From UHGV virus genome UHGV-0371215: a stretch of 17,293 nucleotides of DNA. The stretch is one strand, 5' to 3'. The stretch is from a virus. Below are positions 8,086 to 13,791 of the stretch, in pieces (position 1 is the stretch's first letter; every line of letters begins with the position of its first letter). The notes beneath the pieces are model-generated. The model saw only the letters and a list, made by a program, of their open reading frames with translations, was not told the origin of the DNA and searched no databases. Made by a program: the position numbers and the translations under genes.

Positions 8086-8119
8086 AACACATGCTCCTCC
8101 TTTTCCTTTAAATCAGGTT

Positions 8120-8143
8120 AAAAGGCGGTCTGAACCGCCTTTT
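8120..8143 (-). terminator. Terminator-like hairpin between major capsid gene and downstream head genes
   Basis: Transcript reads AAAAGGCGG-UUCAGA-CCGCCUUUU, a 9-bp stem (5 G/C pairs flanked by an A4/U4 tract) 9 nt after the T stop codon. Probably a partial terminator or mRNA-stabilising hairpin. Confidence 0.5.
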
Positions 8144-8151
8144 AATGACGG

Positions 8152-9069
8152 TTACAGGTAGTCAGCGACAACCAGTTGCAGCTTGCCCTTCATCTCGTTG
8201 GAGACAGTGGTATTGCCATCCGCGAACAGTTCACGGTTAAGCAGTTGCTCTGCGGCTTTTTCCAGCCCGACCGGTACAACGATATGTGTCGGCTTCAGGC
8301 CCAGCTTCTTACCGCCATCACCTTCAAACGCACGCATCAGTTGCCAGCCCTTCCAGAGGTTATCCAGCGTCAGATCACCTTTTACCGCAACAGCCATCTG
8401 CCAGAAGCCGTAACCGGCAGCACGGCGGGCGCTGGCACCAAACAGGAACTCGTTATCCATAAAAACGTGGTCGTCATCGATACGGGTACGTGCGACCAGT
8501 TCCGGTTTGCGGCGCTCCTGGAAAATCAGCGGTTTGACTGCGCGGGAGCAGTCCAGCAGATAGAACGGCAGACCGCTGAAGCTGTCCTGCTCAACGATGT
8601 TGGAGGTATTAACCGCGCTGCCCGTGCCGTCCACATTCGGATATACCGGATGCTCCTTGTCGAAGAAGTTCTGACCGTCATAGCACGGCTGGGTAAAGCC
8701 ATCTTTCAGAAGTTTAAAAATCAGCTCATCCGGCTGAACTGCCGCAGAACGGCCCATCTCCTGAAAAATCGGCGCATAAATACCCAGATTGTCATCCTCG
8801 AAGTCATCACGGGAAATACCAACGGTGCCTTCAAACGTTTTATTGGTGATGGAGTAGCCATGCGCTGCCATTTGCTGAATGGTTCGCTTACCCACCCATT
8901 CTTTCAGGGTCGGGAATTTACCCAGCCAGCCATAGGTATTACTGCGGGTGGAAGAGTTCACCACCATTGCAATTTTGTTGTACTGCGACGGGGCGTCTTC
9001 AAGACCGCCCTGAAAATCCTTACGCCAGGAGGTCATCAGGGCTTTAATGGATGCCGGGGTGACAATCAT
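8152..9069 (-). CDS. T: Major capsid protein (Mu gpT-like)
   Basis: 305-aa ORF, ATGA overlap with the I stop (9066-9069); followed by a stem-loop as is common for highly expressed capsid genes. Confidence 0.85.
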   Translation of the reverse strand: MIVTPASIKALMTSWRKDFQGGLEDAPSQYNKIAMVVNSSTRSNTYGWLGKFPTLKEWVGKRTIQQMAAHGYSITNKTFEGTVGISRDDFEDDNLGIYAPIFQEMGRSAAVQPDELIFKLLKDGFTQPCYDGQNFFDKEHPVYPNVDGTGSAVNTSNIVEQDSFSGLPFYLLDCSRAVKPLIFQERRKPELVARTRIDDDHVFMDNEFLFGASARRAAGYGFWQMAVAVKGDLTLDNLWKGWQLMRAFEGDGGKKLGLKPTHIVVPVGLEKAAEQLLNRELFADGNTTVSNEMKGKLQLVVADYL

Positions 9070-9617
9070 TTTTCTTGTTCCTGTTTCATTTTCAGATACT
9101 CAGCCTCTGTAATGCCGAGCGCCTTCACTGCTGCCTGTTCATCAGCAGACAGCACCGCCACCGCCGTTTTTTCCTGCGACGGGATTTTCGCTGTGGTGGT
9201 CTGCATGGCAGATAACGCAGCGATGGGCTGTTTTTTCTCAAGCTGTGCCGACAGTGCCGCCACGCCAATCTGACCGCCAAGCTGTTCCAGGTAAGTGCGT
9301 TCGCTTCTGAAAATGCGGCCCTCCTGTTCCGCCTTGTCCAGAACGGCGCTCAGGCTGGCGGTGGCGCTTTGTGCAGTCGCCTGTGCCAGTTCATCACGCA
9401 GGGCGTTGTAGCTTTCCACCGGGACGTATTTCGTCAGGTCAACGGCGGCTTTCTGTGCCTTTTCCAGTTCGGCAGACAACGCGGCCACTTTTCCGGCATT
9501 ACTTTCCAGCATGTCCAGCGCGGTCAGTGCCGCTGTTGCCTGTTCATCGGTGATGTCTGCATTTTCGGGGACCGTCACCCCAAGACGCGCAAGCAGCCTG
9601 CGCAGCGTTTCATTCAT
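9066..9617 (-). CDS. Z: Nested in-frame scaffold protein (Mu gpZ-like), from an internal start of I
   Basis: In-frame ATG at 9617-9615 (Met179 of I) preceded by AGGAGA 8 nt upstream; the downstream 183 residues are the coiled-coil-like part of I. Confidence 0.45.
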   Translation of the reverse strand: MNETLRRLLARLGVTVPENADITDEQATAALTALDMLESNAGKVAALSAELEKAQKAAVDLTKYVPVESYNALRDELAQATAQSATASLSAVLDKAEQEGRIFRSERTYLEQLGGQIGVAALSAQLEKKQPIAALSAMQTTTAKIPSQEKTAVAVLSADEQAAVKALGITEAEYLKMKQEQEK

Positions 9618-10151
9618 GGGTTTATTCTCCTGTTGAAGGATGTCGGGAAGGTCTGCCGCCAGTGCGGTCAGCTTTTTCATGCCGGTGGCACCGGGGTCAT
9701 TGGTCAGCGCAGCAAGGCGGATTTGCAGCACCGCACCGGTGGCGGTGTCATACGGAAAAACCGCAGAGAGATAACCAAATTCGCCGTCATCGATGCGCTG
9801 CTGTGCCGCCGCCGTCCAGCGTGGGTGGATAAATAATCCTTCACCTTCACGCCACTGCATTTCATCGGCGTTAAACCAGCCAGCCGCGACGAGTTGTTCC
9901 GGGGGTAATCCTTTGTCCTTACGTAGCTGGTTATGCTCGTAATCAATCAGCACGTCCTGGTTGAGCGCGCGAACGCCTTCAACCAGACGCCCGGCAATCT
10001 CACCGTCGATGAACCACCCCTGACCGCCTGTCACATCAAACGGACGACCATCACGGGCACTGAAATGACCGGCAGGCAATAGCTGGCACCAGCCGTCATC
10101 GTCAATGGACAGCGCACTCAGTGCGGCAATGCCAATCGCGTGTTTTTTCAT
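9066..10151 (-). CDS. I: Head maturation protease / scaffold (Mu gpI-like)
   Basis: 361-aa ORF; globular N-terminal half and Ala/Gln/Glu-rich predicted coiled-coil C-terminal half; position between G and T as in Mu. Confidence 0.85.
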   Translation of the reverse strand: MKKHAIGIAALSALSIDDDGWCQLLPAGHFSARDGRPFDVTGGQGWFIDGEIAGRLVEGVRALNQDVLIDYEHNQLRKDKGLPPEQLVAAGWFNADEMQWREGEGLFIHPRWTAAAQQRIDDGEFGYLSAVFPYDTATGAVLQIRLAALTNDPGATGMKKLTALAADLPDILQQENKPMNETLRRLLARLGVTVPENADITDEQATAALTALDMLESNAGKVAALSAELEKAQKAAVDLTKYVPVESYNALRDELAQATAQSATASLSAVLDKAEQEGRIFRSERTYLEQLGGQIGVAALSAQLEKKQPIAALSAMQTTTAKIPSQEKTAVAVLSADEQAAVKALGITEAEYLKMKQEQEK

Positions 10152-10347
10152 GTCCTGCTGCTCATCATGGTTTGTGAGCAGTCAGTTTGCGGGAGGTGCG
10201 GGAAAATCTGGGGTTATGCTATTTGAGTACTGGAGAAAGAAAGTGGAAGGAAGATAAAACGGGATTCATACACCGTTAAATACCGGTTTAAAAATCCCGT
10301 GGCGCGTTTTAAAAAATCTGTGCGGCTGATTTTATGTCTGATTCTGT
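10152..10347 (-). promoter_or_regulatory. G-I intergenic region: hairpin plus candidate late promoter for the I-T-tail operon
   Basis: 196-bp non-coding gap, the largest in the window; inverted repeat ACGGGATT/AATCCCGT (10259-10266 vs 10293-10300) followed by a U-rich run on the transcript; AT-rich stretch and an ATAACCCC tract about 60 bp upstream of the I start. No sigma-70 consensus identified. Confidence 0.3.
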
Positions 10348-10818
10348 TTATTGCCTCAGAGCGGCGCTGACGCGTTTTCTGATGGCATCAAAAATTTCCT
10401 GTTCCCCGGTCTTATCCAGCCCCATATAAGGACGTGCCGGAACGCCTGCCGGGCGGGGGGCCATATCGGGTGTGCCGCCCCACTGATGAATGGCCGCATA
10501 AATTTTTGGCGAACCAATCAGGGCATAATCCTGTCCATAATCGGTGGTAATGCTGCGTGCCAGATCGCCATGCAGGGTAAGAATACTGCCCGGAACAAAA
10601 CCATGATCCTGACGCCATGCCAGCCACGAATCGCTCCACGCTTCCCAGCCTTTCCCTGTATCCGGGTCGGCCTGCCGTTCAAATGCCTGTTCTGTGGATG
10701 ACAACAGTGCTGCGGCAATCGCACGGGGAATGGCACGATCCCGCGTCACCGTTTCCAGCTCACCAAGTGCGGTCTGAAGATGCCGGACATCCACCACGCT
10801 GTTCATATCAATACTCAT
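10348..10818 (-). CDS. G: Virion morphogenesis protein (Mu gpG-like)
   Basis: 156-aa ORF with a GAGGAG Shine-Dalgarno upstream of ATG 10818; position between F and I. Confidence 0.8.
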   Translation of the reverse strand: MSIDMNSVVDVRHLQTALGELETVTRDRAIPRAIAAALLSSTEQAFERQADPDTGKGWEAWSDSWLAWRQDHGFVPGSILTLHGDLARSITTDYGQDYALIGSPKIYAAIHQWGGTPDMAPRPAGVPARPYMGLDKTGEQEIFDAIRKRVSAALRQ

Positions 10819-10859
10819 GTATTGAGCTCCTCTTACATGAAAAATATACTGACGCTACA

Positions 10860-10938
10860 GGCGCTGTACGCTTAACGGTAAAGACGGTGTCAACCCCGCA
10901 GGGGAGCATGTATACAGGTTCGACTCCTGTCAGCGCCT
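10860..10938 (+). other. tRNA-like motif (T-arm plus acceptor stem only) in the F-G intergenic region; not a canonical tRNA
   Basis: ACAGG-TTCGACT-CCTGT (10914-10930) has a T-arm-like 5-bp stem and 7-nt loop, followed directly by CAGCGCC (10931-10937) that pairs perfectly with GGCGCTG (10860-10866); a T follows at the U8 position. I could not fold a D-arm or anticodon arm from the intervening 47 nt. Confidence 0.25.
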
Positions 10939-12272
10939 TAATCCAGCGTACCTTCCAGAATTTCAACCACACCCCCGGCAATATCCGATTTCAGGGCGCT
11001 GATGTCCGGCAGCCTGTATGCATTGATCAACACATCCAGACGGTCAGCCTGTCGCTTTAACGAATAAGCCGCATTGACCACCACCTTTGCGCTCCCGGTT
11101 CCGGTGCTGACCAGGTAAATCAGGTTATTGTGTCGCCTGTCCCAGAGCACCGCCTGCGGTTTTGCCAGCAGTGACGGCAGTAACCGCAAATCCTCAGGCA
11201 GCAGTGCAACCCCCGTTTTGTGGTGTTTCGGGCTGTCCGCATGAAGCAGGCTTTTTTCGCTCATTACCAGCAGTCTGGCCGGGGCTTCACCTGTTCGCGC
11301 CTGTACGGCATCTGCCACAGATTCAGTCATAAAACCCAGCGTCTGGATCCCGTGACCGGCACGGCGTGATTCGGTCAGACGTTTCACCCATAAGGAAAAA
11401 GCAAGCTGACGCTCCCGGCTGTTATTCAGCGTCTGTACAACCTGTTCACGCAATTGTGCGTCACGGACCTCCACCAGTTTTCGAATCAGCGCCTGATCCG
11501 TACCAAACGCCGCCGAACCCGGGTTATATGACCAGCCCACATCCGGCGTCATTTTTACCCGACCATTGTCAAACGTGGTCGACGATGTGCGGAAAATCTC
11601 TCCGGTGCTTTCATCCGTGCCGGCCTCCACTTCACGGGTATTCATGAATGACGCACCATAACTGACCTGTAGCCCCAGTTCTTTCATGCGGGCCGCAGAC
11701 AGCGCCCGGACGCGACAGCGGCAGTTCCAGCCATTGGGCGGGTAATGCGTCTGCCAGAAAATGTCGTCATACCGGAAAACCATATTGTGCAGCCGCGCAT
11801 GTTCCGGGCGTGTTCTGCCATCCATAACGGCAACGTACTGCCAGTACGGGTACAAATCGGCGGTATTCATCATCTGTGCATAACGTCCTACCCCATACGC
11901 CGTACGGGTATTGACGTTATAAATGGTTGCCAGACGACGCGGACTGCCCAGCTCGATTACCTTTGCGTTTCCGTCTGCATCCACGATGATTTGTTTTCCC
12001 CACCATCCGAGTTTTTGCAGCCGGGGGGCCAGTGTGCGGGTAAATTCTTCACGGGTGATGCCTTCACTGACAGCCCGCTCCACTTCCTCACGGATTGTGG
12101 TCAGGACATCCATCCGGGTGGCTTTGGCAACGGTAAAGGCGCGGGCGTGCGCGTCTGCCAGTTGTTCGTACCAGTTCCAGGTGATGTTGTAGCCTTTGGC
12201 GCGGAAATACGCGACAGCCTCCTTTGGCGGGAGGCGTGCGGCATACGCCAGATCAATGGTCTGCTGCGGCAT
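10938..12272 (-). CDS. F: Head morphogenesis protein, MuF (gp30) family, with about 150-aa C-terminal extension of unknown function
   Basis: ORF 10938-12308 in the track starts at GTG; ATG at 12272-12270 with a G-rich Shine-Dalgarno is the preferred start (444 aa). MuF-like core includes YPPNGWNCRCRV and PDVGWSYNPG; C-terminal about 150 residues (His/Arg/Lys-rich) follow the core. Confidence 0.8.
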   Translation of the reverse strand: MPQQTIDLAYAARLPPKEAVAYFRAKGYNITWNWYEQLADAHARAFTVAKATRMDVLTTIREEVERAVSEGITREEFTRTLAPRLQKLGWWGKQIIVDADGNAKVIELGSPRRLATIYNVNTRTAYGVGRYAQMMNTADLYPYWQYVAVMDGRTRPEHARLHNMVFRYDDIFWQTHYPPNGWNCRCRVRALSAARMKELGLQVSYGASFMNTREVEAGTDESTGEIFRTSSTTFDNGRVKMTPDVGWSYNPGSAAFGTDQALIRKLVEVRDAQLREQVVQTLNNSRERQLAFSLWVKRLTESRRAGHGIQTLGFMTESVADAVQARTGEAPARLLVMSEKSLLHADSPKHHKTGVALLPEDLRLLPSLLAKPQAVLWDRRHNNLIYLVSTGTGSAKVVVNAAYSLKRQADRLDVLINAYRLPDISALKSDIAGGVVEILEGTLD

Positions 12273-13791
12273 CCAGACGCCCCCATATATCGGCAACAAA
12301 AATGGCACGGGTCAGCATGTCGATAAGTTCTGCATCATCCATCTGCGGATATAATGAAGCGGCTTTGTTCATGGCGGCTTCCGGGCCATCTTTCAGCACA
12401 GAAAAAATGACGGGTTTCAGCAGGGAATCAACCGAACGCTGCCAGTCTTCCGGTGAGACGCCCATCCTGTCGATATCATCCTCCTGCGGGATATCTTCAG
12501 CGGATAATGCGGCCTCTTTCTGCGAACCGTTATCCGGGACAACAGGTTGAGCAGTAAACACGGCTTCATCACCGACCGGCTGTGGAATATGAAGTTTTTC
12601 CTGTATCCAGGAGACCGGAATACGCATTCCCGCCGCCAGTTTCGGAATGGCGTCAGACAGTGCCGTAATATCACCCGCTTCACTGGTATCAAATACAATG
12701 CCCGGCAGGCGGTTAATATCAATGGTGCTGTCACTGTTCAGTGCCAGCAGGGGATAAATCAGGTCACGGTTAATACTGCGGGCAAGCTGGCCCACATCCG
12801 CGTTACGGATTTCCCGGCGAACCTCATCATGCACTTCACCCAGTGACCGCGCACCTTTATCGCCAGCCTCTGTGGTCAGGGTGCCGCCCAGAATGGCTTT
12901 TGAAATCGCTTTTTCTGCCCAGCCAATCATTGCCATGAAAGGGTCAGACTGACCATCTGCGGCGCTCTGAAAATCCAGCGTCATCCCCATCGGAATAATG
13001 CCACCGGCACGTCGCCCGATATCCATCACGGCCTGCATCAGCGTGGCTTTCTCACGGTTCGTGGAGCCGGTCGGATATTTACCGACGCGCATGGGAAGTC
13101 CGTAAATTTCCAGAAACTCTGCAAAATCACGCACGGAATAGTTTTTAAAAATAAAAGGCCAGATAAGCGTGCGCACAAGGCCATTGGTGCCAACGTACCC
13201 GGTGCGGGATTTGGCCCGGTGCATAAACCAGCCGAACGGTTGCAGCTCCAGCCCGTGATAAGACGTATCACGCAGACGTAATTCGTTCAGATTATCGGGG
13301 TTCGCGCAGAACAGCGCCGGATCGCGATGATGCAGCGCCACCGGCACGCGCATTTTGCCCAGCCAGCCCCATTCAATCTCCTGCATGGAATAACCCTTGA
13401 GAATGGCATCACCGGCATCAAACAGGGCATCTTCAAACCACGCCGCATCATGCAGATATTCATTCAGCATGTCGGCGTCTTTTTTCTCCTGTGCGCTGGC
13501 ATCACGTGCCGGAGCGATGCGCCATTCCAGCGCCTGAATGGCAAGGCGGCGCTTGCTCAGTTCGGAAAAAAGGTGGGTGTCCTTTTCTTCCATATCAAAG
13601 GCCAGGTCAGCCTGTGCGGTCAGATCACCGCGTTCGGCATCACGCAGCATCTGCGCGGCCCGGTTCGGCGTCACACCACTGGAAGGATGCTCCTGCGTAC
13701 GCTTCATGACCATTGCCAGCTCATCGCTGCGGGTCTGCATTTCATCGTCAAAATCAAACGGCTGCCCGGAAATATCCAGAATACGGCCCAT
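12253..13791 (-). CDS. H: Portal protein (Mu gp29/H-like, DUF935 family)
   Basis: 512-aa ORF; ATG at 13791-13789 shares one nt with the terminase stop (TAATG); position between terminase and F. Confidence 0.85.
   Translation of the reverse strand: MGRILDISGQPFDFDDEMQTRSDELAMVMKRTQEHPSSGVTPNRAAQMLRDAERGDLTAQADLAFDMEEKDTHLFSELSKRRLAIQALEWRIAPARDASAQEKKDADMLNEYLHDAAWFEDALFDAGDAILKGYSMQEIEWGWLGKMRVPVALHHRDPALFCANPDNLNELRLRDTSYHGLELQPFGWFMHRAKSRTGYVGTNGLVRTLIWPFIFKNYSVRDFAEFLEIYGLPMRVGKYPTGSTNREKATLMQAVMDIGRRAGGIIPMGMTLDFQSAADGQSDPFMAMIGWAEKAISKAILGGTLTTEAGDKGARSLGEVHDEVRREIRNADVGQLARSINRDLIYPLLALNSDSTIDINRLPGIVFDTSEAGDITALSDAIPKLAAGMRIPVSWIQEKLHIPQPVGDEAVFTAQPVVPDNGSQKEAALSAEDIPQEDDIDRMGVSPEDWQRSVDSLLKPVIFSVLKDGPEAAMNKAASLYPQMDDAELIDMLTRAIFVADIWGRLDAAADH

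Follow-up and report, generated by a model that had tools for sequence, protein, structure and literature searches.

Why should the short gap between two late genes of a Mu-like phage contain what looks like part of a tRNA? The window analyzed here, that is, the whole stretch of 17,293 nt from the virus genome UHGV-0371215, raises this question between its genes F and G, which are separated by 119 nt and which lie, as do all the long open reading frames listed near the element, on the minus strand. A sequence-only reading of the locus had pointed to a T-loop, TTCGACT, in a 5-bp stem (ACAGG/CCTGT), followed by a 7-nt strand perfectly paired with an upstream segment at tRNA-like spacing, and both landmarks are indeed present, the second as GGCGCTG (10860-10866) paired with CAGCGCC (10931-10937). 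The same reading had considered that the middle of the element does not fold and that an anticodon arm is lacking, and it had offered three options: a decayed tRNA, a tRNA-like structure, or a stem in the late mRNA. As detailed below, the tRNA-like structure is the only one of the three that survives, and the element is very probably a small RNA gene, with predicted transcription from the plus strand.

With regard to its shape, the middle of the element does fold, as both the alignment to the Rfam tRNA model and RNAfold indicate, and the minimum-free-energy structure is a four-way cloverleaf (see the table). The D arm is canonical, with a GCUU/AAG(A) stem and an AACGGUA loop that holds the invariant G18 G19, and the central arm consists of a basal GUGU/GCAU stem, an internal loop, and an apical CCCC/GGGG stem closed by a GCA triloop. 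The alleged absence of an anticodon arm thus stands insofar as there is no 7-nt anticodon loop, which is the sole tRNA part missing from the fold, but falls insofar as a stem with a 3-nt loop forms in its place. With a short capped hairpin where the anticodon loop would be, this RNA cannot decode. At the other end of the molecule, the acceptor helix reaches 8 bp because A10859 pairs with T10938 (position -1:73), a base that doubles as the first base of the complement of the F stop codon (TTA, 10938-10940). The final U of the variable loop could moreover form a Levitt-type pair with A15, as in tRNA tertiary structure.

Table. Features of the F-G region of the window (positions are those of the whole stretch)
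Feature	Position	Strand	Basis or remark
Anticodon-less tRNA-like RNA gene, cloverleaf (four-way junction)	10859..10938	+	Rfam, family model, covariation, minimum-free-energy fold
Acceptor-like stem, 5' strand	10859..10866	+	Pairs with 10931-10938; 8 bp
Acceptor-like stem, 3' strand	10931..10938	+	No CCA encoded
U8 A9, extra C, D arm, then CG	10867..10886	+	Alignment to the Rfam tRNA model
Central arm in anticodon-arm position	10887..10909	+	RNAfold
Variable loop GUAU, 4 nt	10910..10913	+	Columns nearly invariant in the 22-sequence alignment
T arm	10914..10930	+	Stem ACAGG/CCUGU (10914-10918 with 10926-10930), loop UUCGACU
Sigma-70-type promoter (predicted)	10822..10850	+	TTGAGC, 17-nt spacer, TATACT
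Gene G	10348..10818	-	Virion morphogenesis, Phage_tail_S; downstream of F
Gene F, Mu gp30 homologue, minor head protein	10938..12308	-	Phage_Mu_F aa 71-200 and MuF_C/PBECR aa 359-432
MuF_C (PF18819), i.e., PBECR domain, Barnase-EndoU-ColicinE5/D-RelE fold	11013..11234	-	Pfam
Motif HADSPKHH	11220..11243	-	F aa 356-363; predicted catalytic Lys-His, "pre-alpha" element
Cassette unlike Mu	about 10690..11400 (~700 bp)		50-75% identical or without Mu counterpart

How far this RNA belongs to the tRNAs depends on the model consulted. With permissive filters on a 191-nt region, the Rfam tRNA model RF00005 matches 10860-10938 of the plus strand at 32.4 bits (E 2e-5), above its gathering threshold of 29, by treating the anticodon arm as a 24-nt local end, and the Escherichia coli homologue at 31.0 bits; a scan of the whole window at gathering thresholds returned no Rfam match, presumably owing to speed filters. 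The covariance model of the family itself (R1) scores the element at 82.3 bits. Of the programs that the sequence-only reading had named, Rfam therefore bore out the resemblance and ARAGORN did not, the latter reporting neither tRNA nor tmRNA on the window and the E. coli homologues. The region is matched in 161 of 5426 complete E. coli genomes, where the homologous position is 72.6% identical, and PGAP calls the same site in E. coli Mu-like prophages "tRNA-OTHER", on the strand opposite F and G. This annotation is carried by 30/30 records among the matches listed, that is, homologues of the element are already flagged by automated annotation.

When confronted with the hallmarks of canonical tRNAs, the element retains the cloverleaf, the D arm, the T arm with its 5-bp stem, the 4-nt variable loop, and the tertiary nucleotides U8, A14, G18 G19, T54 T55 C56, and A58, which build the tRNA elbow, and its GCTTAAYGGTAAAGC-like D-arm sequence recurs in many genuine tRNAs that the pattern scan of viral contigs also picked up. 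It differs from them by the absence of a 7-nt anticodon loop with U33, an anticodon, and a purine at position 37; among 36 relatives, a single 7-nt loop occurs (UAUCAAU in L198), with A instead of U at the U33 position. It also differs by an extra nucleotide after A9 and by its 3' end: instead of a 7-bp acceptor followed by an unpaired discriminator and an encoded CCA, the -1:73 positions are paired, as GC, AU, or UA, in 22/22 sequences of a MAFFT alignment and in 33/36 of a model alignment, with no CCA after the stem. No consistent aminoacylation (synthetase) identity element is apparent in the RNA family. Nor is it a tmRNA, as neither ARAGORN nor Rfam detects one and the element is only 80 nt long. 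For annotators this is a warning, since such loci do not encode tRNAs that decode.

Taken by itself, the folding energy of the single sequence does not stand out (z from -1.0 to -1.35, not significant), and the support for the structure is comparative. To this end, relatives were gathered from a DNA-pattern scan of viral contigs, from isolated phages, and from viral and metagenome loci fetched through their G protein and then searched with the covariance model, a route that avoids ascertainment on the RNA. These relatives show that the structure of the RNA is under selection. Among 22 distinct sequences aligned with MAFFT, 93.1% of the cells pair and 15 of the 21 pairs change on both sides; in the model alignment of 36 distinct relatives, which is fitted to the model and thus leans towards the structure, but with which the MAFFT result agrees, the corresponding values are 93.2% and 19/21, so that the covariation check suggested by the sequence-only reading came out in favor of the fold. 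The covariation score of the 36 sequences (0.674 vs. 0.228 for shuffles) was reached by 0/500 shuffles, and sliding the 3' partners by one to three columns left only 39-48% of cells paired.

Every helix contributes to this signal. All eight acceptor pairs covary, with 98.3% (22 sequences) and 96.8% (36 sequences) of cells paired; covariation of the D stem is seen in divergent members, where it reads, e.g., GAAU/AUUC or CCCC/GGGG; the basal stem of the central arm covaries in both alignments; and in the T stem, three to four of the 5 pairs do so, with 98-99% of cells pairing. U8, A9, A14, G18 G19, and GGUUC.A (columns T11 A12, A18, G22 G23, and GGTTC.A) are invariant in the 22-sequence alignment, an invariance partly due to the search pattern used to collect that set. 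The central arm, for its part, varies in length among the 36 relatives, its apical loops being mostly of 3-4 nt and its caps being UUCG (6 sequences), UCCG (4), GCAA, CUUG, or a triloop, and L003 represents a minimal form, namely a canonical cloverleaf with UUCG where the anticodon loop would be. The RNA is retained from Escherichia to Pasteurella prophages.

Which strand carries this RNA can be read from the same alignments, as the paired columns of the 36 relatives contain 67 G·U cells on the plus strand versus 7 A·C cells (those that the other strand would show as G·U), and pairing would drop from 93.2% to 85.2% if the element were read on the minus strand. The RNA thus lies on the plus strand, antisense to the late genes. 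Directly upstream, a predicted sigma-70-type promoter would start transcription at about A10857, ~2 nt before the stem; it is the sole promoter-like site in 10600-11300, where 0.3 would be expected by chance, and its -35 box coincides in part with the translation start region of G (Shine-Dalgarno sequence and start codon), which is read from the opposite strand. In most of 21 relatives inspected by eye, an equivalent -10 box occupies a position 6-10 nt ahead of the stem; the divergent L183 and L214 also have a -10-like hexamer before it, read by eye and not scanned for. Judging from this consensus match, the RNA gene apparently has a promoter of its own in the window and in closer relatives. 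The same promoter/terminator scan of 10600-11300 found no terminator after the element.

If the RNA is a gene in its own right, its neighbor F may tell what it is for. The F protein matches Phage_Mu_F at 108.5 bits and, towards its C-terminus, MuF_C at 29.2 bits against a cut-off of 27.6. Its closest database proteins are 444 aa long, the nearest being P0047 of E. coli (98% identical), so that F likely starts at ATG 12272 and not at the mechanically chosen GTG 12308; starting at 12272, F would overlap the last part of the portal gene. MuF-C corresponds to the PBECR domain of the Barnase-EndoU-ColicinE5/D-RelE RNase fold, the copy in Mu gp30 being considered inactive and orthologues with active-site residues being predicted RNases (Iyer et al. 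2017, PMC5512222). A preprint also places PBECRs among the colicin-like BECR RNases, with a catalytic His in a pre-alpha element and a semi-conserved Lys before it, and reports a conserved DUF4926 gene as a common downstream neighbor of other MuF-BECR (DUF6883) fusions, an arrangement that its authors read as toxin-immunity (bioRxiv 10.64898/2026.08.28.747851). The Lys-His position described there matches K361-H362 of F, which sits before the core helix, is conserved in all RNA-positive lineages, and is on this basis predicted to be catalytic. At strand 4, where a polar residue would be expected, N or T stands before x-Y/F-R/K. In the AF2 model that covers F aa 320-456, with a mean pLDDT of 80.7, four strands come after a helix, and the motif sits just before this helix. 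Neither Foldseek against the PDB nor a profile search of PDB sequences was informative for this domain, and a word-indexed protein search with the C-terminal fragment of F alone gave only 4 matches.

The comparison of the window with phage Mu (NC_000929) places the RNA and this domain in one and the same block. Sliding identity over 9700-12600 reaches 98-100% at the nucleotide level on both flanks of a cassette that differs from Mu, within which lie the MuF-C domain, the RNA gene together with its predicted promoter, and ~40 codons at the start of G. The swap of this cassette relative to Mu shows that the RNA and the F domain travel together.

The presence of MuF-C alone was rejected as a predictor of the RNA, as the Mu-type F has the domain and no RNA; it is the His motif that discriminates. 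The relatives nearest in G protein (L005-L020, 92% aa identity) lack any F-G intergenic region, which led to a comparison of the F proteins: RNA-positive loci carry SEKxLxHADSxKH(H/Q), or H.D...H or K..RH in divergent phages, and in RNA-negative loci this segment is gone through a 4-9-aa deletion or a substitution, the motif being likewise deleted or replaced in Mu gp30 and all RNA-lacking relatives. After clustering of the F C-termini at 70% identity, with the motif defined as HxDxxxH, KxxRH, or HxxxxH, the RNA was found in 17/17 clusters with the motif and in 0/10 without it, that is, 0/27 clusters are discordant (Fisher's exact test, about 1e-7, not corrected for phylogeny). A neighbor-joining tree built without the motif columns requires at least 5 joint losses, and the co-occurrence spans domain identities down to about 25% relative to the domain of the window. 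In all 17 motif lineages, the RNA lies beside the stop codon of F, including L198, in which a methylase gene stands between the RNA and G and the RNA still abuts the F stop; in the 10 motif-less clusters, the F stop abuts or overlaps the G start. Isolated phages display the same pattern, Pasteurella phage Pmp9 having both the motif and the RNA (81 bits), and Mu and Shewanella phage MuM16-1 having neither.

These counts should be read with their composition in mind. Of the 17 positive clusters, 13 were recognized by the covariance model and 4 by inspection of cloverleaf-like RNAs, two of which (L183 and L211) are without a T-loop, and 5 positive loci came from the RNA-pattern scan, so that some ascertainment on the RNA remains in the sample. 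For two of the 10 negatives (L310 and L311, looked up later), absence of the RNA was deduced from a 4-nt overlap of F with G, which leaves no room for it, and not from a model search. The main caveat lies elsewhere: the His motif is only about 280 nt from the RNA gene, and physical linkage alone could give the co-occurrence, which, as recombination can move the motif and the RNA in one block, overstates their functional coupling.

Some loci at the margins of the family deserve mention. In L183 (1084-1178) and L211 (downstream of position 401), the K..RH variant of F has in the same place, after a -10-like hexamer, a cloverleaf RNA with D-like and T-like loops that differ from those of tRNAs (e.g., GGAGG-GACGGCAGG-CCTCC), as if the protein motif and the RNA loops changed together. 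The RNA family also occurs in a Mu-like element, maybe a defective phage or satellite, represented by L080 (13253-13333) and L146 (426-506), with a gpT capsid gene, an rve transposase, an AAA ATPase, DUF4238, and DUF2971/DUF2199; no F or MuF-C gene lies within 12-15 kb of it, which counts against a link between F and the RNA.

With these observations in hand, we suggest that the RNA may be a non-cleavable tRNA mimic that binds or neutralizes the putative RNase domain of F, a reading to which we grant close to, yet somewhat below, an even chance. The RNA would be the genetic partner of the C-terminal MuF-C/PBECR domain, with its predicted colicin-D-like, metal-independent RNase fold; the domain would bind it as a tRNA look-alike devoid of a scissile loop, and the bound RNA would keep the nuclease harmless inside the cell that produces F. 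Having its own predicted sigma-70 promoter, the RNA could conceivably also shield a lysogen from F injected by related phages. It would then occupy the position that the DUF4926 gene holds downstream of other MuF-BECR fusions. In a bolder version, which we offer as a possibility more than as an expectation, the anticodon-less mimic would be an RNA immunity factor that imitates the substrate of an injected colicin-D-like tRNase domain on F. One difficulty is that an RNA that stayed bound in the virion would leave the effector blocked after injection, so that a release step must be assumed.

Other roles would account for part of the same data. Instead of inhibiting F, the RNA might be its positive cofactor, cargo, or substrate, by helping the domain to fold or assemble into procapsids, by being injected with F as an RNP, or by being processed by the RNase of F. 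The co-occurrence and cassette data fit these variants equally well, as they do not separate binding to inhibit from binding to assist, and the 2-3 tandem copies found in L170 and L307 are reminiscent of nuclease-processed antitoxin or substrate arrays. We nonetheless consider them unlikely, given that phages that lost both motif and RNA, such as Mu, are viable, which implies that the RNA is not needed for the role of F in head assembly, and that an antisense gene with a sigma-70 promoter is ill suited to stoichiometric co-production with a late protein. The RNA might also be independent of F, as a moron-like accessory gene placed between phage genes and tied to the motif by the shared recombining block alone, for example as a decoy or sponge for tRNA-directed enzymes of the host or of a rival (defense nucleases, CCA-end-modifying toxins, RNase P, or modification enzymes). 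Its promoter of constitutive type, its variable presence among near-identical phages, its occurrence in L080 and L146 away from any F gene, and the existence of unrelated anticodon-less tRNA-like elements in other phages speak for such a role; however, independent elements would be expected to separate, when no cluster is discordant down to about 25% domain identity and the RNA of L198 remains beside F and not beside G. Furthermore, anticodon nucleases recognize the very loop that this RNA lacks, which counts against a decoy, and we regard this independent role, too, as doubtful.

Readings in which the cloverleaf is incidental fare worse. It could form the 5' module of a longer antisense RNA that extends into the 3' coding part of F and down-regulates F in the manner of a type I antitoxin, its tRNA-like fold serving as a stabilizer or processing signal; this would agree with the lack of a terminator after the element and with a gene that abuts the F stop in the window and whose coordinates overlap the end of the F ORF in L298 and L219. 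It is nevertheless improbable, as the conserved, covarying part is the cloverleaf with its tRNA tertiary nucleotides, and what follows evolves as F coding sequence. As for a structured element of the late F-G mRNA on the minus strand (a processing site, stabilizer, or translational uncoupler), the reverse complement does fold and the element does sit within the late operon, but the G·U bias and the loss of pairing on that strand, together with T-loop and D-loop consensuses that are legible on the plus strand only and a predicted promoter on that strand, make this option of the sequence-only reading very improbable. The decayed tRNA goes the same way: although a functionless pseudogene in decay would have no anticodon loop, escape ARAGORN, and encode no CCA, compensatory changes in all four helices, invariant tertiary nucleotides, selected stable caps or triloops on the central arm, and retention from Escherichia to Pasteurella leave it scarcely credible.

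Several known systems resemble the proposed pair of a tRNA-mimicking RNA and the F domain in some respects. In ToxIN, CptIN, and TenpIN, a structured RNA beside an endoribonuclease gene is thought to neutralize the protein by binding it; these type III toxin-antitoxin systems are associated with phage or abortive infection, and their RNA is a 34-36-nt pseudoknot repeat located upstream in the operon. Here too, the RNA gene adjoins a predicted RNase domain, and some relatives bear tandem copies: three different anticodon-less tRNA-like genes follow one another between F and G in L170 (854-1165), and two in L307 (downstream of position 836), which recalls the repeat arrays of type III antitoxins. 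The layout of the window is otherwise distinct, as tandem repeats upstream, a single operon, a terminator, and a ToxN/AbiQ fold are replaced by a single tRNA-like cloverleaf with its own predicted promoter, antisense to and downstream of F, and by a BECR/PBECR domain (MuF_C/PBECR) on a virion protein. Colicins D and E5 with their immunity proteins, and DUF6883 with DUF4926, have a BECR-fold RNase with a protective gene directly downstream, as the pair proposed here would. The immunity proteins of these colicins work as mimics of the tRNA substrate; in the present case, the downstream gene would be a tRNA-shaped RNA and not a tRNA-imitating protein, and the putative toxin domain resides in a head protein. 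Finally, the tRNA-like domain of tmRNA, mascRNA, the vtRNAs of gammaherpesviruses, and YrlA all keep an acceptor/T-arm, have lost anticodon function, and serve as protein-binding or processing handles. In comparison with them, the element is bacterial/phage-encoded, has a complete D arm, and is tied to one neighboring protein domain; it has neither the mRNA-like part nor the tag peptide of tmRNA, and is not circularly permuted like YrlA.

A literature search of incomplete coverage returned no paper on this RNA, nor one on an RNA partner of MuF-C, and there is a substantial chance that F and its RNA constitute a nuclease-inhibitor pair of a new class. The F protein of Mu (gp30), although a classic head protein, is poorly understood, its PBECR domain being only predicted to bind or cut RNA, and our analysis offers a concrete candidate RNA partner for this domain. 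It also offers a natural on/off comparison, the window being in effect Mu with a ~700-bp cassette swapped in. Since Mu is a natural null for both parts, the immunity-factor reading could be put to a direct test in that phage. Should the RNA inhibit or guide the domain, phages could protect themselves or their lysogens from a virion-delivered RNase by means of a substrate-imitating RNA, tRNA mimicry would join the mechanisms of RNA antitoxins, and the "tRNA-OTHER" calls in Mu-like prophages would be explained.

Around the locus, two further features of the window were recorded. Its G-I intergenic region (10152-10347) is 99% identical to the Mu segment annotated with a gyrase cut site, which is the central strong gyrase site of Mu. 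On the minus strand, a perfect hairpin, AAAAGGCGGTC-tga-GACCGCCTTTT (8112-8143), follows a major-head-type ORF (8152-9069); it resembles a bidirectional intrinsic terminator and is weakly matched by the RNA model on both strands.

Beyond Mu-like phages, the pattern scan brought up other anticodon-less tRNA-like elements, to which an association with MuF-C was considered for extension and then dropped: the L140 group adjoins scaffold and capsid genes, and its neighbors have no Pfam match or similarity to MuF-C. This unrelated family (L071, L094, L126, L127, and L140, the latter at ~9145-9225) is characterized by a CCCGG-ACAT-CCGGG arm with a 4-nt loop, followed by a T-run, and lies on the coding strand of SPP1-like phages, between ORFs of unknown function and the scaffold and major-capsid genes. 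In L027 and L107, phage tRNA-like sequences with an ACCA end and a shortened anticodon loop, reported by ARAGORN as tRNA-???, appear to be deletion derivatives of the suppressor tRNA of L130 (anticodon UUA).
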